Origin: Acidimicrobiales bacterium
GTDB lineage: Bacteria > Actinomycetota > Acidimicrobiia > Acidimicrobiales > AC-9
Assembly (NCBI GenBank): GCA_051984395.1
Contig: JBPYEZ010000123.1
Span: 3,227 to 67,226 of the forward strand
Direction: 5' to 3'
Length of the DNA stretch: 64,000 bases
In this document: one piece after another, positions 27,405 to 46,047 of the stretch
How the letters are laid out: each line of letters starts with the position of its first letter
Position numbering within the stretch: the first letter of the stretch is position 1
Translations under genes and position numbers: made by a program
The notes under the pieces: generated by a model
Told to the model about the DNA's origin: nothing
The model's input: the letters and a program-made list of their open reading frames with translations, nothing else
Database searches by the model: none

Positions 27405-27980
27405 TCAGGTGGTATCGATTAGTCCGATTTGACCGTCCTTCCGCCGGTATACCACCGCGGCACGGCCCGTTTCAGCATTGGTGAACAGGATGAACCCCCG
27501 GCCGAGCAGGTCGAGCTCCAGCGCCGCCTCCTCCGGGGTCATGGGCTTGGCATCGGATTGGACCGTCCGGATGATGCGCGGCTGCTCGTCCGCTACGTCC
27601 TCCTCGTCGCTGTCGTCGTCCAACACTGCGGCCGACGCCTCGGGACCGGGCACCCCTCCGGCGTGGCGGCGAGGGTGGGACCGTCCGATCAAGCGCCCCT
27701 TCAGCTTCTCCATCCGGTGCTCGAGCTTGTCGACCACCCGATCGACGGCGGCGAAGGTGTCGGTCGCCGCCGCCCTGGCCCGCACGATGTGACCATGGCC
27801 CACCACGGTCACCTCGCACACCTCCTTGTCGGCGATGCGCGGATTGCGCTCCTCGAGGAAGCGAACCTCGGCCCGCTCCATCGAGTCGAGGTAGCGCCCC
27901 AGACGGGTGACCTTCTCCTCCACGGTTGCCTTCAGCACCTCCGACACCTCGACGTTTCGGCCCTGGATCGAGATGTCCAC
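27405..27980 (-). CDS. hpf: Ribosome hibernation promoting factor, long form (RaiA/YfiA/HPF family)
   Basis: GTG at 27980 is preceded by AGGAGGAA. DISIQGRNVEVSEVLKATVEEKV matches the family. After an acidic linker comes the C-terminal dimerisation domain (KPMTPEEAALELDLLGRGFILFTNAETGRAAVVYRRKDG). Confidence 0.92.
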   Translation of the reverse strand: MDISIQGRNVEVSEVLKATVEEKVTRLGRYLDSMERAEVRFLEERNPRIADKEVCEVTVVGHGHIVRARAAATDTFAAVDRVVDKLEHRMEKLKGRLIGRSHPRRHAGGVPGPEASAAVLDDDSDEEDVADEQPRIIRTVQSDAKPMTPEEAALELDLLGRGFILFTNAETGRAAVVYRRKDGQIGLIDTT

Positions 27981-28029
27981 GTGCGTTCCTCCTGTGTCAA
28001 TGTGCGGGCCGCGAGCGGCTGACCTGGTC

Positions 28030-28325
28030 TTTGACCCCACACTCGCCTGCCGAGAGGGTGGCGGACGGGGCGCTGGCGGCCGGCTGGCCCCACAGCGCAC
28101 CCTGGCGCCCGCGTCGCCTCTTCGCCGCCGGTGCCGAGGATCGGCACGTCGGCGGGCAGGACTTACTCCTAAGCCGCACCATGCTCAGCAACCACGGGTT
28201 GCCTTACGTGGGTCGTTTCGCCTACGGCTGGCCTCGACTTGCAACCACAGACCCGCACGCAGCCCATACGAGAGTGTAGGACGTGCTGACGGGATGCGGC
28301 CTAGTCAGTACGTGCCAGTCGTCCA
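28030..28325 (-). ncRNA. Candidate structured ncRNA upstream of hpf (raiA-motif-like); boundaries approximate
   Basis: It sits in a 378-nt gap without a credible ORF, on the same strand as hpf, with a local GC dip. Visible hairpins are at 28131-28147 (GTGCCGA/TCGGCAC), 28159-28175 and 28188-28202 (GCAACC/GGTTGC). The call rests on context, not on a verified consensus match. Confidence 0.4.
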
Positions 28326-28358
28326 GTAAGCCCGGTCCGGCCCGGTGCAGGGCCGGGG

Positions 28359-29414
28359 CTACTCCTCGGACGGCCCTCCCGGGCCCGCCGTGAGACCGCT
28401 CTTGATCTCGGACAGGGCCGGGACGGGCCCTGGGTCGAGCCCCTCCTGGGCGGCCAGGTGCAACGAGACGAAGTCGCCGAAGATGACGAGGTCCAGAAGC
28501 TGGGCCAGGCGTCCCTCACCCTCGCCCTCGACCTCCTCGATCCCGGCGACCACCTCGCGCACGATGTCGTCTACCAGCTCGAAGCGACGAGCGATCCGGG
28601 GGTGCTCGTCACCGTGCCTGAGGTTCACGAGAGTGAGGAGCTGGCGGGTGATGTCCCCGTGCTGGCCCCATCCGGCCACCTCGTTGTGGCACAGCTCCGG
28701 CTGGGTCGCGGCGAAGGCCGGGGCCTTGGCGTTCTCGTTGACGTCCGCCTTCCAGCGCCAGGCGGCGACGGAGCCGATCCCGGCTGCCCCGTAGACGAGT
28801 GGGATCGTTCTCCCGATGCGACGGGCGAGCGCCTCGGCCGGGCTCGCCGGCCCGACGAGCTGGTCCCGGCGGCGCCGCAGCTGGGCGACAGCCTGATCGA
28901 CCCACCGTCGGGCGCCCGGGAGCAGGCGCAGGTCCTCGGCCACGGCGAGCAGCGGGACGGTCATGGCCCCCACAGCGGCGCGCGGCTGAGGAATGCCGTC
29001 GGGCACCGGCAGGACCGGTGCCCCCCAATCGTCGGCCCGCTTGGCCAGCTCGCCGCCGCTCGTGACCACGACCACTGCCGCGCCGCGTGACACCGCAGCC
29101 TGAGCGGCCTCCACCGTCTCCTCGGTGTCGCCAGAGAACGAGACGGCGAACACCAACGACGCCGGGCCGACGAAGCCCGGTGGGCAGTAGGACTTCACGA
29201 CCGAGACCGGCACGGCCAGCTCCGGGCCGGCCGTCGCCTGGAACACGTCGCCCGCGATTCCGCTGCCCCCCATGCCCAGCACCACCACGTTGGCGATCGA
29301 CCCGCGGGGCAGCGGGCCCGCCATCTGCTCGAAAGCCTGGGCGGCACTGGCGACCTGCTCGGGGAGCTGGGCGGCGGCGTCCCACATCCCCAGCGTGTCG
29401 AGCCGCTCGCTCAC
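28359..29414 (-). CDS. Bifunctional phosphoglucose/phosphomannose isomerase family protein (SIS domain)
   Basis: VVVLGMGGSGIAGDV and VFAVSFSGDTEETV are SIS motifs. The C-terminal part shows PELCHNEVAGW, typical of the PGI/PMI family. Confidence 0.85.
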   Translation of the reverse strand: MSERLDTLGMWDAAAQLPEQVASAAQAFEQMAGPLPRGSIANVVVLGMGGSGIAGDVFQATAGPELAVPVSVVKSYCPPGFVGPASLVFAVSFSGDTEETVEAAQAAVSRGAAVVVVTSGGELAKRADDWGAPVLPVPDGIPQPRAAVGAMTVPLLAVAEDLRLLPGARRWVDQAVAQLRRRRDQLVGPASPAEALARRIGRTIPLVYGAAGIGSVAAWRWKADVNENAKAPAFAATQPELCHNEVAGWGQHGDITRQLLTLVNLRHGDEHPRIARRFELVDDIVREVVAGIEEVEGEGEGRLAQLLDLVIFGDFVSLHLAAQEGLDPGPVPALSEIKSGLTAGPGGPSEE

Positions 29415-33599: not shown

Positions 33600-34535
33600 C
33601 TAGCGGTTCAGCGCCAGCACCAGCACGGTGACGGCGTTGAAGGTGGCGTGGGCGACGATGCCCGGTCCCAGGCGACGCCACTGCTCGGCCAGCACGCCGA
33701 GGACGACGCCGAAGGCGGTGAGCCCCAGCAGTTGCAGGAGCTCCAGGTGGGCCAGGCCGAAGGCCACGGCCGAGATGAGCACGGCGACCGTCGGGCAGGC
33801 GCGGCGGCCGAGCGATGCCAGCCCCTTGGTCTTCTCGAGGGAGCGCAGCAGGAGTCCCCGGAAGAACAGCTCCTCGACCAGTGGGGCCCCGAGGACCACG
33901 AAGATGCCCAGCACGACGAGGCCGGCGGTGTCCGCACCGCCCGTGAGGTGCTGGGCGGGCTGGCCGAGCTGCTGGTCCAGATGGGGCACCAGCACCCGGA
34001 CCGGGATGTAGAGCACCGGCAGGAGGATCAGCTGGGAGCCCAACCCGACGCCCAGCCCGAGAGGCACGTCGGGCCAGACCTTGAGGCGCAGCCCGAAGTC
34101 GACCGCCAGCTGCTTGGCGCCCTTCAGGCGGCTGGCGAGGACGGGCGCCCCGGCGAGACCGACCCAGAGGCCGACCAGCGAGAAGACAGTGGCCCCGACG
34201 GTCGAGGTCGACGAGCTTGTCGTCCGCTCACCCGTCACGCCGACCCAGATCACCACGGCCAGGCTGGAGGTGATCACCCCGACGACGAAGCCGAGGATGG
34301 CGTCGCCCAGGCCCCAGCGAGCCTGGGCCGGTGGCGACGGCCGCCCGGTCCCGTCAGGTGGTGGCGAGGACCGGCCGACCCATCCAACCGGCGGAGGTGG
34401 CCGGCCGTCGGGTGTTCCACCGCGCCCCGGTCGCCATCCAGCGGGCGGTGGGATGTCCCAACTCGAGCCCGGTGCGTTCCACGGCTGATCGGCCCCACGC
34501 TCACCAGGCGAGCCCCAGGGCTCGGGTCCTGTCAC
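33600..34535 (-). CDS. CPBP family intramembrane glutamic endopeptidase (CAAX protease-like) with Pro-rich N-terminus
   Basis: EELFFRG, FGLAH and HATFN motifs are present. The start is uncertain: GTG at 34535 is chosen, and the frame stays open to 34724. Confidence 0.8.
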   Translation of the reverse strand: MTGPEPWGSPGERGADQPWNAPGSSWDIPPPAGWRPGRGGTPDGRPPPPVGWVGRSSPPPDGTGRPSPPAQARWGLGDAILGFVVGVITSSLAVVIWVGVTGERTTSSSTSTVGATVFSLVGLWVGLAGAPVLASRLKGAKQLAVDFGLRLKVWPDVPLGLGVGLGSQLILLPVLYIPVRVLVPHLDQQLGQPAQHLTGGADTAGLVVLGIFVVLGAPLVEELFFRGLLLRSLEKTKGLASLGRRACPTVAVLISAVAFGLAHLELLQLLGLTAFGVVLGVLAEQWRRLGPGIVAHATFNAVTVLVLALNR

Positions 34536-34713
34536 GTCCTGGCCGGGTCCCTCATCCCGACGTCCCTCACCCCGACCGACGCTCACCCTCGACGCGCGGC
34601 GCAAGACCAGCGCCCGCTGCCGCGGAGAGAGACGTCCATGTCCCGCGACGTTACCGCCGGGACTGGCCAAGCGTGCCCCCCCGGGGCTTCGGTATCCCGC
34701 CCGGCCCTCTAGC

Positions 34714-36861
<2,148 letters not shown>

Positions 36862-40158: not shown

Positions 40159-41346
40159 TCAGGCGGCAGCGGCCGACGCGTCCCGGTAGAGAGCGGCGAG
40201 GCCGGCCGCGCACTCCTTCCAGCTGAAGGCCCCGACTCGCTGCCGGCCCCTCGCCACCAGATCGGCTCTCGCCCCGTCGTCGACGAGCAGGCGATCGATG
40301 GCGGCGGCCAGTACGTCGGCGTCATCCGGCTCGACCAGCTCGGCGCCGTCACCGACCACCTCGGGCAGTGCCCCCGCGGTGGTGGTCACGACGGGAACCC
40401 CCGCCGCCATCGCCTCGAGCGGCGGGAACCCGAAGCCCTCGTAGACCGACGGGAACGCGAACAGCGTGGCCTGCCGAAGCAGACGGGAACGGTGGGCCTG
40501 GCTCACGTAGCCCAGTCTCACCAGGCGGTCGCGCCACGGCGAGGCGGCGACGGCCGCCTCGAAGCCCTCCATGCCCCAGCCGGGCCGCCCCGCCACCACC
40601 AGCGACAGGTCTCGATGGCGGTCGGCCACCTTGTCGAAGGCCCGCACCAGGTTGGCGACGTCCTTCCTCGGCTCGACCGTGCCCAGGGCGAGCACGTACG
40701 GGCCGTCTGGTACCCACTCTTCCGGGGCCGGCCTCCCGGGCCCAGCTCCGGTGGCGCTGCCCCCGCCGGTCCTGGCGTCGGCGCACTCGACCGGCGGGAC
40801 ACCGTGGTGAACGGCGCGAACCCGCTCGGGCACCGCGCCCAGCAGCTCGACGACCTCGTCCCGCACGAACGCCGAGGGGGTGTGGACCCAGGCTCCCTGT
40901 CGGATGGCTCGGCGCACGAGCGGAGGGAAGGTCTGCGTGTAGTGGTCGCACATCTCCGGGAAGCGGACCGTCGTGAGGTCGTGCACGGTGAGCACCCGGG
41001 CCGCTCGCCGGGCCGGCGGAACGATGAAGTTCGTGCCATGGACCACGTCGACCGCGCCCGTGAACCACTCGATCGGCGGCAGCGACGTCAGTCGCCAGGC
41101 CCGGTGGACGGGCCGGGCGGGCATCGGCCTGTCGACCGCGGCCACCCCGGCGGGCAGGTGCTCGACGATCCGCCCCCGTCGCCGCCAGCTCACCGCGAAG
41201 GCGCGCACACGAAGGTCCTCGACCGCGGCCAGGGCGGCCAGGGCGCCGACACAGAAGGCGCCGATGCCGGCGGTCGTCCCGAGCAGGGGCGTGGCGTCGA
41301 AGGCCACGTCCAGGCCCGGCGGACCCGTCGCGCCCGAGCTTCGCAT
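40159..41346 (-). CDS. Glycosyltransferase family 4 (GT-B)
   Basis: ATG at 41346. GTVEPRKD and PSVYEGFGFPPLEAMAAGVPVV are present. Confidence 0.88.
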   Translation of the reverse strand: MRSSGATGPPGLDVAFDATPLLGTTAGIGAFCVGALAALAAVEDLRVRAFAVSWRRRGRIVEHLPAGVAAVDRPMPARPVHRAWRLTSLPPIEWFTGAVDVVHGTNFIVPPARRAARVLTVHDLTTVRFPEMCDHYTQTFPPLVRRAIRQGAWVHTPSAFVRDEVVELLGAVPERVRAVHHGVPPVECADARTGGGSATGAGPGRPAPEEWVPDGPYVLALGTVEPRKDVANLVRAFDKVADRHRDLSLVVAGRPGWGMEGFEAAVAASPWRDRLVRLGYVSQAHRSRLLRQATLFAFPSVYEGFGFPPLEAMAAGVPVVTTTAGALPEVVGDGAELVEPDDADVLAAAIDRLLVDDGARADLVARGRQRVGAFSWKECAAGLAALYRDASAAAA

Positions 41347-41386
41347 CACCGGAGCCTCCCACACGCCACGGGCGGGGAGGTCGAGC

Positions 41387-42373
41387 ATGATTAGCCTGAC
41401 GGGCATGATCGCTGCCCTGGCCGGAGGCGTGGGCGCCGCCCGCCTCCTGGGTGGTATGACCCGCGTCGTCTCTCCACGTGACATCACGGTCGTGGTCAAC
41501 ACGGGTGATGACACGGTCCTGCACGGCCTGCATGTGAGCCCCGACCTCGACACCGTCACCTACAGCCTCGCCGGTGTGGTCAACCAGGAGACGGGCTGGG
41601 GACTGGCAGGCGAGACGTGGGCGGCCATGGAGACCCTCGAGCGCTACGGCGGCGAGACCTGGTTCAGGCTGGGAGACCGCGACCTGGCGACCCACCTCTA
41701 TCGCACACAGCGGCTGCGCGACGGGGCTTCGCTGTCGATGGTCACAGCAGAGGTGGCGGCGGCGTGGGACGTCGGCCCGCGCATCCTGCCGATGTCCGAC
41801 GACCCGGTCCGCACCCGGGTCACGCTCGCCGAAGGAGCTGGGGCCGGCCCGGGAGACCGACCCGAGGACCGCGATGTGGAGTTCCAGGACTACTTCGTGC
41901 GACGGCGACACGCGGTGGAGGTGCAGGCCGTCCGCTTCGATGGCGCCGAGTCGGCCCGCCCGGCGCCAGGGGTGCTGGAGGCCATCGAGACAGCGAGGAC
42001 GGTCGTGGTGTGCCCGTCCAACCCCATCGTCTCGATCGGTCCGATCCTCGCCGTGCCTGGCGTCGAGGAGGCGATCGCCGGGCGGCGGGCCGACACGGTG
42101 GCGGTGTCGCCGATCGTGGCCGGCGCCGCGCTCAAAGGGCCGGCGGACCGGCTGCTCACCGAGCTCGGCCACGAGGCATCGGTGGTCGGCGTGGCCCGGC
42201 TCTACGCTCCCCTGGCGTCCACCCTGGTCGTGGACGACGCCGACGCTCCGCTCGCCGACCGGGTCGAGGCGGAGGGAATGCGGTGCGTGGTGGCCCCCGC
42301 CGTGATGAGCTCGCCCGAGCTGGCCGCGGCCCTGGCCAAGGTGGCCCTGGACGCAGGCGGTCGAAGGTCATGA
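41387..42373 (+). CDS. cofD: 2-phospho-L-lactate (or EPPG) transferase CofD/FbiA
   Basis: GGGGAGG lies 6 nt before the ATG. ALAGGVGAARLL, VVNTGDD...HGL.VSPDLDT..Y.L and WFRLGDRDLATH are present. Confidence 0.92.
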   Translation: MISLTGMIAALAGGVGAARLLGGMTRVVSPRDITVVVNTGDDTVLHGLHVSPDLDTVTYSLAGVVNQETGWGLAGETWAAMETLERYGGETWFRLGDRDLATHLYRTQRLRDGASLSMVTAEVAAAWDVGPRILPMSDDPVRTRVTLAEGAGAGPGDRPEDRDVEFQDYFVRRRHAVEVQAVRFDGAESARPAPGVLEAIETARTVVVCPSNPIVSIGPILAVPGVEEAIAGRRADTVAVSPIVAGAALKGPADRLLTELGHEASVVGVARLYAPLASTLVVDDADAPLADRVEAEGMRCVVAPAVMSSPELAAALAKVALDAGGRRS

Positions 42374-43065
42374 GCCTCCAGGTGCTCCCGGTCGCCGGCC
42401 TGCCCGAGGTCGGCGCCGGCGATGTGGTGGCCGACCTCATCGCCGACCGGATCGAGCTCGTTGACGGTGACGTCGTCGTCGTCACCCAGAAGATCGTGTC
42501 CAAGGCCGAAGGGCGACTGGTACCCGTCGACCCCGACGATCCCGGGTCCGTGCGGGAACTGGTCGAGACCGAGGCCACGCGGGTCCTGCGCCGCCGGGAG
42601 GACCTGATCATGACCGAGACCCGCCACGGCTTCGTGTGCGCCAACTCCGGCGTCGACCTCTCGAACGTCGAGTCGGGTCGCGCTGCGCTGCTGCCCGTCG
42701 ATCCGGACCGCTCGGCGCGACGCATACGCGACGGACTACGAGCCCGGACGGCGGTGACCGTCGGGGTCGTGGTATCCGACACCTTCGGCCGCACCTGGCG
42801 TCGCGGCAGCACCGACGTCGCCATAGGTGTGGCCGGCGTGGCCGCCGTGTTGGATCTCCGTGGCACCCGGGACTGGGGCGGTCGGGTCCTCGTGGGCACC
42901 GAGGTGTGCGTGGCGGACGAGCTGGCGGGGGCGGCCGAGCTGGTGATGGGCAAGGCGACAGGGGTGCCGGTCGCCGTCGTACGCGGGGTCGATCCGAGCT
43001 GGCTGCGCGAGTCGTCGGTAGCCGAGGAGGTGGTGCGGCCCTACCGCGAGGACCTGTTCCGCTGA
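42370..43065 (+). CDS. cofE: Coenzyme F420-0:L-glutamate ligase CofE (single-domain, no nitroreductase fusion)
   Basis: ATGA overlap with cofD. VVVVTQKIVSKAEGR, HGFVCANSGVDLSN and VVVSDTFGRTWRRG are present. Confidence 0.9.
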   Translation: MSLQVLPVAGLPEVGAGDVVADLIADRIELVDGDVVVVTQKIVSKAEGRLVPVDPDDPGSVRELVETEATRVLRRREDLIMTETRHGFVCANSGVDLSNVESGRAALLPVDPDRSARRIRDGLRARTAVTVGVVVSDTFGRTWRRGSTDVAIGVAGVAAVLDLRGTRDWGGRVLVGTEVCVADELAGAAELVMGKATGVPVAVVRGVDPSWLRESSVAEEVVRPYREDLFR

Positions 43066-44051
43066 CGCGAGCCGCGCCCACCCTTGGCCGGCCGGCCACC
43101 CCCGCCCCCGTCGGGCGACGTCGCCGCCAGCACGGCGGCCGTTCCGTCCGCCAGGGTCGTCCACGGCTTCCATCCCAGGTGGATGGCGGCGCGCCCCGGA
43201 TCGAGGGACGAGCGGTGGAGCTCTCCCGCCCGGGCCGGCGCGTGGACGGGACGCTGCGAGCTGTCCGCCGCGCTCGCCATCGTCTCGTACAGTCGCAGGA
43301 CCGACGTCTCGGTGCCGGTGCCCACGTTGAGGACCAGGCCGCCACCCCGTTGTCCGGCGCGCGCCATGGCGTCGACGACGTCGTCCACGAAGACGAAATC
43401 CCGAGTCTGGGAGCCGTCGCCGAAGATCGTGCAGCGCTCGCCGGCGACGAGGCGGCCAGCGAAGATGGCGACGACCCCGGCTTCCCCGTGAGGATCCTGG
43501 CGAGGCCCGTAGACGTTGCCGAGGGCCAGCGCGCAGAACTCCATGCTGTGGAGCTCCCGGTAGGCCCTGAGGTAGTCGATGACGGCCAGCTTGCTGACCC
43601 CGTACGGCGACGTCGGAGCGTGCGGAAGCGACTCCCGGGCGGGCAGGTCGGAGGGACGCACGTCGCCGTAGAGCGTGCCCCCACTGGCGGCGAAGACGAT
43701 CTTCGGCACCCCCGCCCGCCTCGCTCCCTCGAGGACCCGCAGGCTGCCGAGGATGTTGATGTCAGCGTCCAGCACCGGGTCGTCCACCGACACCCGCACG
43801 TCGGCCTGGGCAGCCAGGTGGAAGACCACTTCCGGCGGCCGCCGGGCCATGAGGTCGACCAGCTGGGGCGAGCGGATGTCGAGATGATGGAACGTCATGT
43901 CGTTCGAGGATCCGGAGCGGGCGTCGGCCAGGTTGGTGAGCGAGCCGCTCGACAGGTCGTCGACGACGTCCACCGCGTGACCCTCGGCGAGGAGACGGTC
44001 GACCAGCGTCGAGCCGATGAACCCCGCACCGCCGGTGACCAAGGCCCTCAT
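43041..44051 (-). CDS. NAD-dependent epimerase/dehydratase (UDP-hexose 4-epimerase-like)
   Basis: VTGGAGFIGSTLVDRL and the catalytic YGVSK are present. It overlaps the cofE 3' end convergently by 25 nt. Confidence 0.9.
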   Translation of the reverse strand: MRALVTGGAGFIGSTLVDRLLAEGHAVDVVDDLSSGSLTNLADARSGSSNDMTFHHLDIRSPQLVDLMARRPPEVVFHLAAQADVRVSVDDPVLDADINILGSLRVLEGARRAGVPKIVFAASGGTLYGDVRPSDLPARESLPHAPTSPYGVSKLAVIDYLRAYRELHSMEFCALALGNVYGPRQDPHGEAGVVAIFAGRLVAGERCTIFGDGSQTRDFVFVDDVVDAMARAGQRGGGLVLNVGTGTETSVLRLYETMASAADSSQRPVHAPARAGELHRSSLDPGRAAIHLGWKPWTTLADGTAAVLAATSPDGGGGGRPAKGGRGSRQRNRSSR

Positions 44052-45124
44052 GCCGGCACCCGATCGCCGTCCACCCGGGCGCTGGGCTCGATGATCGCCC
44101 CGGCACCCACGACCGACAGCCCGCGCACGACGGCGCTCTCGCCCACCACCGCCTCGGGGCCGACCACCGACGTGTCCACCGTCGCCCCCGCCGCCACCGA
44201 GGCGCCAGGCAGCAGGACCGAGCCCAGCACCGTGGCGCCGCCATCGACCCCGGCCCCGGCGCCGACCACCGAGCTGTCGACGATCGCCCCGCTGGCCACA
44301 CAGCCGCCGTCGCCGACCAGCGAGCCGGCCCGCACATCACCCTCGATCACCGGCGCACCGACCACCCAGACGCCGGGAGACACCTCTCGGGCACCGGGGC
44401 GCGGTGGTCCCGGCCGCGCTCCGGACAACAGGTCCCGGTTGGCCTGGAGGTACTTGGCGGGGGTACCGGCGTCGACCCAGTAGGCGTCGGAGGCGAGTGC
44501 GAACAGCCGCCCCGCTTCCACCAGGGCCGGGAAAGTCTCCCGCTCGATCGACACCCGCCGCTCGCGGTCGATGAGGTCGAGCACCGAGGGCTCGAGGACA
44601 TAGGTGCCGGCGTTGATCAGGTTGGTGGGAGCCCGCCCGGCCTCGGGCTTCTCGATGAAGGCCATGACCCGCCCCTCCCCATCCGTGGGCACCACGCCGA
44701 ACGAGGAGGGGTCCGGCACGGGTGTCAGGCTGATCGACGCCTCCGCACCTGTCTGGCGGTGGAACCGGATCAGCGCGCTCACGTCGAGATCGGTGAGGAC
44801 GTCGCCGTTCACCACGAGGAAGGTGTCGTCGATGCCGCCGTGGGCAGCTGCGAAGGCGATGGCGCCAGCGGTGTCGAGCGGAGCCGGTTCGACCGCGTAG
44901 CCGAGCCGAACCCCGCCGGCCCGGTCGTCCGGAAAGGCGCTGAAGAACGCGTCGGGCCGATAACCGAGCGACAACAACGCCTCCTCCACACCATGGGCTG
45001 CCAAATGGGACAGGACGCGCTCGATCATCGTCTGCTCCACCACCGGGAGCAGCTGCTTGGGGATCGAGTGTGTCAGCGGTCGAAGGCGCGTCCCCTCACC
45101 CCCGACCAGCACGACAGCTCTCAC
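44048..45124 (-). CDS. Sugar-1-phosphate nucleotidyltransferase (mannose-1-phosphate guanylyltransferase-like) with left-handed beta-helix C-terminus
   Basis: GTG at 45124. VLVGGEGTRLRPLT..IPKQLLPV is followed by C-terminal hexapeptide repeats. An ATGA overlap joins it to the downstream epimerase. Confidence 0.9.
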   Translation of the reverse strand: MRAVVLVGGEGTRLRPLTHSIPKQLLPVVEQTMIERVLSHLAAHGVEEALLSLGYRPDAFFSAFPDDRAGGVRLGYAVEPAPLDTAGAIAFAAAHGGIDDTFLVVNGDVLTDLDVSALIRFHRQTGAEASISLTPVPDPSSFGVVPTDGEGRVMAFIEKPEAGRAPTNLINAGTYVLEPSVLDLIDRERRVSIERETFPALVEAGRLFALASDAYWVDAGTPAKYLQANRDLLSGARPGPPRPGAREVSPGVWVVGAPVIEGDVRAGSLVGDGGCVASGAIVDSSVVGAGAGVDGGATVLGSVLLPGASVAAGATVDTSVVGPEAVVGESAVVRGLSVVGAGAIIEPSARVDGDRVPA

Positions 45125-45135
45125 GGGATGCGACC

Positions 45136-46047
45136 CTACCGCGGGGGTCGGGGCCGCCCCGCTGCCCGCTGGGCAGCGGCGGCGCCGGCCCGCAGCACGA
45201 GCCCCACCGCCACCACAGGCAGAAGGAGGCGACGCCAGCCTGAAGTGGTACGCCAGGCGAAGCGCAGCAGAGAGCGGTGATGGGCGACGATCATCCGGTA
45301 CGGATGCTGATCGGTCGACACTCCCTGGACGTGGAGGACACAGCCCGACGGTTCGTAGGCGACTCCCCACCCCGCCCGCCGCAGACGCCAGCACAGGTCG
45401 ACGTCCTCCAGGTACATGAAGTACGAGACGTCGAAGCCGCCCAGGTCCTCGAGCGCCTGTCGCCGGGCCAGGAAGCACGATCCCGACACCCAGTCGACGC
45501 TCCGCCTGCCGCCGTGATCCCAATCCAGCATCTTGTAGCTCCGGCTGAACCGGTTCCTCGGGGCCACCAGGCCGAGGAAGCCGTGCCCCATCGCGTCGAC
45601 CAGGGAGGGAAACGTGCGGGCCGAGGGATACAGCGTCTCGTCGGAGTTGAGCAGCCGAGGCCCGACCAGTGCCAGTGCGGGGTCGGCGTCGAGGACGGCC
45701 GCCATGGCGGCCACGGAGTCGGGGCGAACGACGACGTCGGCGTTGCACACCAGCACCAGCTCGCGGTTACCCTCCGCCAGACCCCGGTTGGCCCCGCCGC
45801 CGTAGCCGAGGTTGGCCTCGGTCTCGATGAACCGGACCTCGGGATCGGCTGCCGCCAGAGCCGCGCCCGAGCCGTCCACGGAGCCGTTGTCGACGACGAT
45901 GATGTCGGCCAGGCCGTCGTCCCTCAGGCTGGCCACGCACGCCAGCAGCTCGTCGCGGGCGTTGTAGTTCACGACCACCGCCTCGACCCGCCCGGCGACC
46001 TCGGACGAGGGCTCCTCGTGAGGTCGCTCCACCCTGCGCTGGCTCAC
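45136..46047 (-). CDS. Glycosyltransferase family 2 (WbbL-like rhamnosyltransferase)
   Basis: VVVNYNARDEL, IIVVDNGSVDGS, NLGYGGGANRG and the FMYLEDVDLCWR motif are present. Confidence 0.9.
   Translation of the reverse strand: MSQRRVERPHEEPSSEVAGRVEAVVVNYNARDELLACVASLRDDGLADIIVVDNGSVDGSGAALAAADPEVRFIETEANLGYGGGANRGLAEGNRELVLVCNADVVVRPDSVAAMAAVLDADPALALVGPRLLNSDETLYPSARTFPSLVDAMGHGFLGLVAPRNRFSRSYKMLDWDHGGRRSVDWVSGSCFLARRQALEDLGGFDVSYFMYLEDVDLCWRLRRAGWGVAYEPSGCVLHVQGVSTDQHPYRMIVAHHRSLLRFAWRTTSGWRRLLLPVVAVGLVLRAGAAAAQRAAGRPRPPR

Follow-up and report, generated by a model that had tools for sequence, protein, structure and literature searches.

A full-length raiA motif RNA gene directly upstream of hpf in an Acidimicrobiales bacterium

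The raiA motif RNA, or ModT, is the subject of several studies (Weinberg 2017; Soares 2024; Lence 2024; He 2026), the last of which used cryo-electron microscopy (cryo-EM; PMC12968392). We analysed a stretch of 64,000 nucleotides (nt) from an uncultured Acidimicrobiales bacterium (GenBank assembly GCA_051984395.1, contig JBPYEZ010000123.1, positions 3,227 to 67,226), which is called the window here. Our results showed that positions 28266..28005 on its minus strand are the gene for a raiA motif RNA, a full-length and ordinary member of the family, which stands directly before hpf, the gene of a ribosome hibernation-promoting factor (Hpf). The RNA belongs to the subtype without the helix P2 and with a multi-stem domain formed by P6, P7 and P8. 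As a whole, the data are very probably best explained by a raiA/ModT gene that is likely carried on one transcript with hpf and whose role in trans is assigned by homology. The interest lies in the layout with a probably shared promoter, together with natural pairs of relatives that have or lack the RNA; the RNA itself adds nothing new to the family.

The RNA gene lies in a gap of 378 nt (27981-28358) between the stop codon of a bifunctional phosphoglucose/phosphomannose isomerase gene (28359-29414, minus strand) and the GTG start codon of hpf (27405..27980, minus strand). A sequence-only reading of the window had proposed a raiA motif RNA in this gap, upstream of hpf, and had named a covariance-model search and a comparison of relatives as ways to check it. 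The extent of the gap and both flanking genes were borne out. The encoded protein is a long-form Hpf of 191 amino acids (aa) with the Pfam domains Ribosomal_S30AE and Ribosom_S30AE_C, and it scored 80 bits against NCBIfam TIGR00741 yfiA (cut-off 40.9). When the whole window was searched with Rfam 15 at gathering thresholds, the sole hit was RF03072 (raiA), at 28261..28010 on the minus strand, with 137 bits (gathering score 101.3) and E = 1.2e-33. This is the significant hit that the sequence-only reading had asked for: it spans model positions 1-209 of 209 without truncation, and all of the about 51 conserved core positions of RF03072 align in the window copy. Non-canonical marks appear in part of the Rfam alignment because the Rfam structure line nests the pseudoknot PK1 and leaves out the helix P3.

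The gap might instead hold no RNA gene, its hairpins being chance products of a sequence with 70% GC, or it might encode a small protein. Open reading frames (ORFs) of 64-140 aa do run through it, and the gap had a minimum free energy z-score of only -1.97 in sense and -1.11 in antisense orientation. Thermodynamic folding was rejected as evidence, since it is too weak in 70% GC DNA, and the covariance model and covariation were used instead. Both argue against chance: the covariance-model E-value is of the order of 1e-33, and 15 other loci keep the RNA, with covariation. The gap also lacks codon periodicity, with a GC content per codon phase of 0.77/0.67/0.63 versus about 0.7/0.5/0.9 in real genes of the window, which agrees with the earlier view that the ORFs are not genes. 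A local drop in GC, which the same reading had noted, is not real (69.3% in the gap versus 70.4% in the window; 67.0% in hpf and 73.0% in the isomerase gene). We consider it next to inconceivable that the gap contains no RNA gene.

The comparison with relatives led to the same identification. A search of species-representative genomes with the Hpf protein gave 48 loci (labelled L001 and so on where they have to be told apart), the best of which come from Acidimicrobiales/Actinomycetota metagenome-assembled genomes (MAGs) with 91% and 87% identity. In 15 of the 20 closest hpf loci, which belong to Acidimicrobiales or Actinomycetota MAGs, raiA was found at 127-154 bits directly upstream of hpf and on the same strand. 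No raiA was found within 4 kb of hpf in any of 20 more distant loci of the Aquihabitans, Iamiaceae and Ilumatobacteraceae types, whose Hpf proteins are 40-50% identical, and the gaps upstream of hpf in these distant Acidimicrobiales are too short to hold it. The family occurs in Bacillota and in Actinomycetota including Acidimicrobiia, a class already listed among its carriers (PMC10861870), and with Acidimicrobiales MAGs as the closest Hpf loci the window copy falls within this range.

An alignment of 16 sequences (A1) was scored with the cryo-EM-based structure including both pseudoknots. In this alignment 97.6% of the cells were paired, compared with 31-47% when the partners were slid. Eleven pairs were changed on both sides, versus 3.1 ± 1.2 in shuffled alignments, and none of 500 shuffles reached 11. 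Eight of these compensatory changes fall in P1 (8 of its 18 pairs, with the extension described below), two in PK1 and one in P6. P3a, P3b and P4 are invariant in the 16 relatives; covariation is neutral for the core helices because they never vary within the clade. For the P6-P8 domain, an independent RNAalifold analysis of 13 sequences gave 40 pairs, 18 of them with compensatory changes. The extension of P1 beyond the Rfam model pairs in 30 of 32 loci, with a median of 5 bp and with covariation. In conclusion, compensatory changes support P1, PK1, P6, P7 and P8. The identification as a raiA motif RNA upstream of hpf is thus supported by the covariance model, by relatives with the same RNA in the same place and by covariation.

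We then placed the architecture known from cryo-EM (He et al. 2026, PMC12968392) on the window sequence, which forms every helix and the two pseudoknots of that model. All elements lie on the minus strand. The limits given above (28005..28266) include a 5-bp extension of P1 (UGGGC/GCCCG) beyond the Rfam match. The 5' strands of P1a, P1b and P1c, with the GU bulge between the first two, occupy 28243..28261 and their partners 28010-28029. P1a has nine pairs (strands UGCGUGCGG/CCGCUCGCG, with one U.U mismatch), P1b three and P1c five; the GU bulge between P1a and P1b is at 28252-28251, and P1b is parted from P1c by a GGU bulge at 28024-28022. The junction after P1c reads GCAA, and P2 is absent. 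The kinked hairpin P3a/P3b (28212..28238) reads GUCG-AG-GCC...GGC-GAAA-CGAC, with an A-rich asymmetric internal loop AG/GAAA and the apical loop GCCGUA (28223-28228), which is the 5' strand of PK1. Directly 3' of P3a follows P4, in which CCACG at 28207-28211 pairs with the invariant 3' strand UGUGG at 28037..28041. P5 is the hairpin GGCAACC-CGU-GGUUGCU at 28187..28203, with 98% of its cells paired in the 16 relatives.

Both pseudoknots involve the segment PK-L (28173..28182). Its UGCGGC (28173-28178) is the 3' strand of PK1, and the resulting GCCGUA/UGCGGC helix of 6 bp is 100% paired in the 16 sequences; apart from the two compensatory pairs, it has two with one-sided changes. The AUG at 28180-28182 forms PK2 with 28032-28033 in GGUCAAAG, where the U.A and G.C pairs are invariant and flanked by the expected G and A. 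Between PK1 and P6 lies the single-stranded linker UUAGGAGUAA (28163..28172), which corresponds to the family consensus UUAGA(C/A)GUAA. Its UUAG..GUAA is invariant in the 16 relatives, and the two middle positions vary. In the cryo-EM structures this linker is single-stranded and solvent-exposed, and it has been proposed as the place where KhpA/KhpB bind (PMC12968392); the window linker is a putative site of the same kind.

The remaining domain is the three-way arrangement of P6, P7 and P8 at 28046..28160, for which RNAalifold on 13 relatives and single-sequence folds agree. P6 (CCUGC/GCAGG) joins 28156-28160 with 28046-28050, P7 has 13 bp at 28125-28155, and the long P8 occupies 28053-28121. 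The three hairpins listed in the sequence-only reading have the sequences given there at their positions, and two of them are real elements of the RNA: 28131-28147 is the distal part of P7, with the hairpin at its tip, and 28188-28202 is P5. The third, 28159-28175, was rejected as a hairpin, since it consists of the 3' end of PK1, the single-stranded linker and the start of P6. A second GGTTGC, suspected as an alternative or pseudoknot partner, turned out to be the 5' strand of P1c plus the junction G (28246-28241). The AGUA/GAA sarcin-ricin (E-loop) motif was not found in P8 of the window or of the 12 relatives that carry P8; in the family this motif is frequent yet optional (PMC10861870; PMC13085918).

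Some of these details could be read as decay, the region being a relic of a raiA gene that no longer functions. The U.U mismatch (28257 with 28014) is the middle pair of P1a, P8 lacks the sarcin-ricin motif, and the score of 137 bits is below that of some relatives, which reach 154 bits. However, the same mismatch is common to four loci (the window, L042, L001 and L002), whose Hpf proteins are 84-91% identical to that of the window; the position is U-A or C-G in other relatives and A.C or U.C in L015 and L016. Moreover, the match is full-length with all conserved core positions aligned, the peripheral stems keep their pairing through compensatory changes, and the promoter hexamer described below is retained. 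A relic is thus very improbable, and the relic, chance and coding explanations are effectively excluded.

The periphery of the RNA is modular within one clade. In L008 (L008:3815-3964) it is 150 nt long and has the P6 hairpin only; in L016 (L016:3804-3977) it is 174 nt long with P2 and with neither P7 nor P8; in L015 (L015:1100-1319) it is 220 nt long, with a seemingly duplicated P2 region, P7 present and P8 absent. The main published raiA subtypes coexist within this single Acidimicrobiales clade.

Aligning the relatives also revealed a -10-like promoter hexamer, TACACT, at 28273..28278 on the minus strand, with no recognisable -35 element. The pattern TA[CG]ACT stands 11-14 nt upstream of the Rfam 5' boundary in each of the 16 clade loci, whose flanking sequences are not alignable and in which no conserved -35 element was found; its background rate is 0.125 per kb per strand. 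In a larger high-GC set of 32 raiA loci, including 16 further metagenome loci each confirmed by Rfam at 128-165 bits, a TAnnnT hexamer is present in 31, and 29 of these 31 have its end 5-8 nt ahead of the point where pairing in P1 begins. Transcription usually starts at such a distance from a -10 element, which puts the predicted primary 5' end at the base of P1.

Downstream, only 29 nt separate the Rfam 3' end of raiA from the hpf start codon, and there is no room in them for a second promoter. The spacer after the base of P1 (27981..28004, minus strand) contains the Shine-Dalgarno sequence AGGAGG at 27988-27993, 7 nt before the GTG, and a generic terminator scan of the minus strand detected no terminator-like site between raiA and hpf. 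The spacer and the initiation region have less predicted structure than shuffled sequences do (z = +0.83 and +2.13). In 14 of the 16 clade loci, 23-64 nt of variable sequence lie between the Rfam 3' end of raiA and the hpf start codon. Of 120 sampled metagenome loci with the raiA 3' motif, 60 have hpf downstream on the same strand; the distance is 34-97 nt in 17 of the 21 high-GC loci with hpf downstream, mostly 71-612 nt in low-GC loci, and about 1.1-1.4 kb in most loci of 55-66% GC (e.g. L053, L073, L098 and L062). This last, fairly constant spacing implies one conserved intervening gene. A pairing of P1a (CGUGCG) with CGCACG at the hpf start was rejected as chance: it is a 6-nt match and is not conserved in L001 or L002.

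In relatives without raiA, a -10-like hexamer comes directly before hpf. In 18 of 21 raiA-less Acidimicrobiales loci, which have a short gap, a TAnnnT hexamer stands about 25-40 nt before the hpf start codon; it is TACACT in L010 and of the TACGAT type in most others. L010 shares with L003, L007 and L009 the tail of an upstream ORF (…EVAAEL…RLP*), the CTACACT hexamer and hpf, and differs by an indel of about 290 nt that corresponds to raiA (L010:3890-4030, alignment A3), which makes it a natural "deletion" comparator. These sequence data suggest that raiA and hpf are likely transcribed together from the hpf promoter, with the RNA as the first 260 nt of a transcript that may extend into the response-regulator gene.

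Two smaller motifs were seen at these loci. The raiA-less Aquihabitans-type loci (L019-L040, e.g. L021:3930-3990) have gTCTACGATCC, which includes the -10-like TACGAT, before hpf, and a ComF-family gene directly upstream. CCATCC recurs in the raiA-hpf spacers of L003, L006, L007, L009, L011, L012 and L016 and also in hpf 5' untranslated regions of raiA-less loci, in both cases ahead of the hpf ribosome-binding site; it is absent from the subclade of the window, L042, L001 and L002.

The close association with hpf raises the possibility that the RNA acts in cis as a leader of the hpf mRNA, either as a ligand-sensing riboswitch or as a 5'-terminal structure that protects the message from 5'-end-dependent decay. 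Such a role would be compatible with a role in trans. The tight spacing in the window, in the clade and in the high-GC metagenome loci fits a leader, as does the hexamer directly before hpf in raiA-less relatives, identical in L010. The predicted 5' end would be base-paired in P1, and 5'-terminal stem-loops are known to stabilise mRNAs, for example in the ompA leader. The raiA-hpf pair is also kept together while the gene upstream of it changes: a ComF-family gene in L003, L008 and L012, an S-adenosylhomocysteine (AdoHcy) hydrolase gene in L001, and the isomerase gene in at least L011 and, judged by C-terminal coding sequence, in L014-L016. Rfam itself types RF03072 as "Cis-reg; riboswitch".

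Other results speak against a leader function. A riboswitch combines an aptamer with a conserved expression platform, and this combination was not found here: the spacer varies in length and sequence, no terminator was detected in it, and the predicted fold leaves the Shine-Dalgarno region more open than in shuffled controls. The 3' strand of P8 (CCUCU/CUCC) resembles an anti-Shine-Dalgarno sequence; as a sequestering element it was rejected as a general mechanism, because L008, L015 and L016 lack P8 and keep their position before hpf. These relatives without P7 and/or P8 also count against a cis role more generally. In other lineages hpf is either 1.2-1.4 kb away from the RNA or missing downstream of it (60 of the 120 metagenome loci, some of which are cut short). 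In-vitro tests showed no small-molecule binding (PMC5737381), and the deletion phenotypes in two clostridia were complemented in trans (PMC10861870, PMC11706538). A function in cis is therefore doubtful.

As in riboswitch-type 5' leaders in general, the window RNA lies between a predicted promoter and a downstream ribosome-binding site, on the same strand and with no terminator between. Unlike them, it has an open Shine-Dalgarno region, no conserved expression platform and no known ligand, and raiA RNA acts in trans in clostridia and, in other lineages, occurs at a distance from any gene. A likeness to 6S RNA and other abundant, stable bacterial RNAs linked to growth phase is one of analogy only: members of the raiA family are highly abundant and very stable, with a peak as cells pass into stationary phase, and a long terminal helix closes their ends. 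In contrast, these RNAs have no sequence or structural relation to the raiA family, for which neither RNA polymerase nor any other partner beyond KhpA/KhpB is established.

By homology with the clostridial members, the window RNA would work in trans, in the form of an abundant RNA or ribonucleoprotein with an effect on the passage from growth into stationary phase; given its membership of the family, we hold such a role to be somewhat more probable than its absence. The sequence-only reading had called the function of the family unsolved. This still applies to its biochemical activity in all members, but publications on clostridial members have meanwhile described the phenotypes of knock-outs, an action in trans, structures by cryo-EM and the binding of KhpA/KhpB (PMC10861870, PMC11706538, PMC12968392). 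KhpA/KhpB bind raiA RNA in vitro in the low-micromolar range (PMC12968392), and the effect on the stationary-phase transition was shown for C. acetobutylicum and C. difficile (PMC10861870, PMC11706538). It is only for clostridial members that a discrete, very abundant and stable RNA acting in trans is established (PMC10861870, PMC11706538, PMC12968392). In the window, transcription from the hpf promoter would start at the base of the extended P1 and run through raiA into hpf. The compact fold, with its 5' end buried in P1, may then live on as an RNA of great stability, whether it is cleaved off or stays on the mRNA as its leader, and KhpA/KhpB bound to the linker could be part of a ribonucleoprotein. 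Co-expression with the hibernation factor would tie raiA production to the switch from growth to stationary phase.

A further idea, which we regard as speculative and rather unlikely, is a "hibernation operon" in Acidimicrobiales and apparently many high-GC Actinomycetota, with raiA as the obligatory first 260 nt of the hpf transcript and the RNA either stabilising or gating the hpf message in cis or acting on ribosomes together with Hpf. The exposed linker of the window contains a Shine-Dalgarno-like AGGAG, where other clade members have AGAGG, AGAAG, AGGCG or AGAUG. Pairing between this conserved, purine-rich linker and the anti-Shine-Dalgarno tail of 16S rRNA would be conceivable.

Several observations weigh against a typical raiA gene that shares a transcript with hpf and acts in trans. 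P8 lacks the sarcin-ricin motif that docks on PK1 in the solved structures. The commonest upstream neighbour of the family, comFC (74%), was not found anywhere in the window and has the isomerase gene in its place; no KH, Jag or R3H protein is encoded in the window either, and it contains no khpA or khpB gene. A generic sigma-70 scan of the minus strand did not call the promoter, which it missed because there is no -35 element. The promoter, the co-transcription and any processing are predictions from sequence. The functional work all comes from sporulating Clostridia, and the phenotype cannot carry over directly because Acidimicrobiales do not sporulate. In a full-text literature search, no in-vivo study of raiA RNA in actinobacteria turned up.

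The surroundings of the gene agree with the published context. On the minus strand the order is phosphomannomutase, a Trm112-like gene, isomerase, raiA, hpf, a LuxR-type response regulator, secA, prfB, ftsE and ftsX. Typically the RNA gene is preceded by comFC (74%) and followed by raiA/hpf (66%), and a response regulator gene, secA and prfB are found nearby (PMC10861870); the hpf, response regulator, secA and prfB genes downstream in the window are these published neighbours. The carrier class, Acidimicrobiia, also matches.

In structure, the window RNA shares with the raiA/ModT family the GU and GGU bulges in P1a/b/c, the kinked P3a/P3b hairpin, P4, P5, PK1, PK2, the exposed UUAG..GUAA linker and the P6-P7-P8 domain. 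It differs in minor points: the absence of comFC upstream and of the sarcin-ricin motif in P8, the junction GCAA instead of GAAA, and 5 bp by which its P1 exceeds the Rfam model. It also stands 29 nt before the hpf start without a terminator, whereas the literature stresses raiA-hpf separations of hundreds of nt and, in clostridia, a terminator of its own. Cryo-EM structures exist of Ca-raiA (Clostridium acetobutylicum, 204 nt) and Ns-raiA (Nocardioides sp., 253 nt). The window RNA resembles the former in lacking P2 and having a tetraloop-like junction after P1c, and the latter in its long P7 (13 bp versus 14 bp) and its overall length of about 252 nt. Unlike either, it combines features of both subtypes.

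Directly after the isomerase stop codon, a GC-rich hairpin without a U tract (CCGGCCC-UGCACC-GGGCCGG, 28337-28356, minus strand) may end the upstream operon; its fold is no better than that of shuffled sequence (z = -0.44). The sequence-only reading had also called the raiA gap the longest noncoding stretch of the window. A crude ORF-based ranking placed larger noncoding gaps elsewhere, and these were rejected as coding by periodicity or by Pfam hits (LivM-type permease, CofD, CofE, nucleotidyl transferase and ThiF). By crude gene calling, every other ORF-free gap of at least 300 nt shows strong codon periodicity or a Pfam hit, with the sole exception of about 34.5-34.9 kb. Here (34500-34900) about 400 nt between the divergent genes of an Rce1-like protease and ftsH have flat GC phases (0.72/0.73/0.74). 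Should the start codons called there lie too far upstream, this stretch may be another long noncoding region. The extent of that gap hinges on the choice of start codons, so the ranking is plausible and not proven.

Elsewhere in the window, ARAGORN called an 89-nt tRNA-Ala with the anticodon AGC at 45115-45203 (minus strand), where Rfam reports no tRNA. It lies inside the N-terminal part of a nucleotidyl-transferase frame (44051-45766) and is probably a false positive. At 40943-43062 (plus strand) lie cofD and cofE, two genes of F420 biosynthesis, and the minus-strand ORF at 42202-42627, a product of the crude gene calling, is spurious.

raiA/ModT is one of the few widespread, large and highly structured bacterial RNAs whose biochemical job is unsolved, and the experiments on it have so far all come from spore-forming clostridia. 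The present comparison gives a checkable picture for non-sporulating high-GC Actinomycetota, in which the RNA is predicted to start at the base of P1 and to share the promoter of hpf, with no terminator between the two. Close relatives differ by the presence or absence of raiA behind the same promoter hexamer (L010 versus L003, L007 and L009). A promoter shared with the hibernation factor fits the stationary-phase timing of the RNA, and what the comparison suggests as the conserved link is ribosome hibernation, not sporulation.

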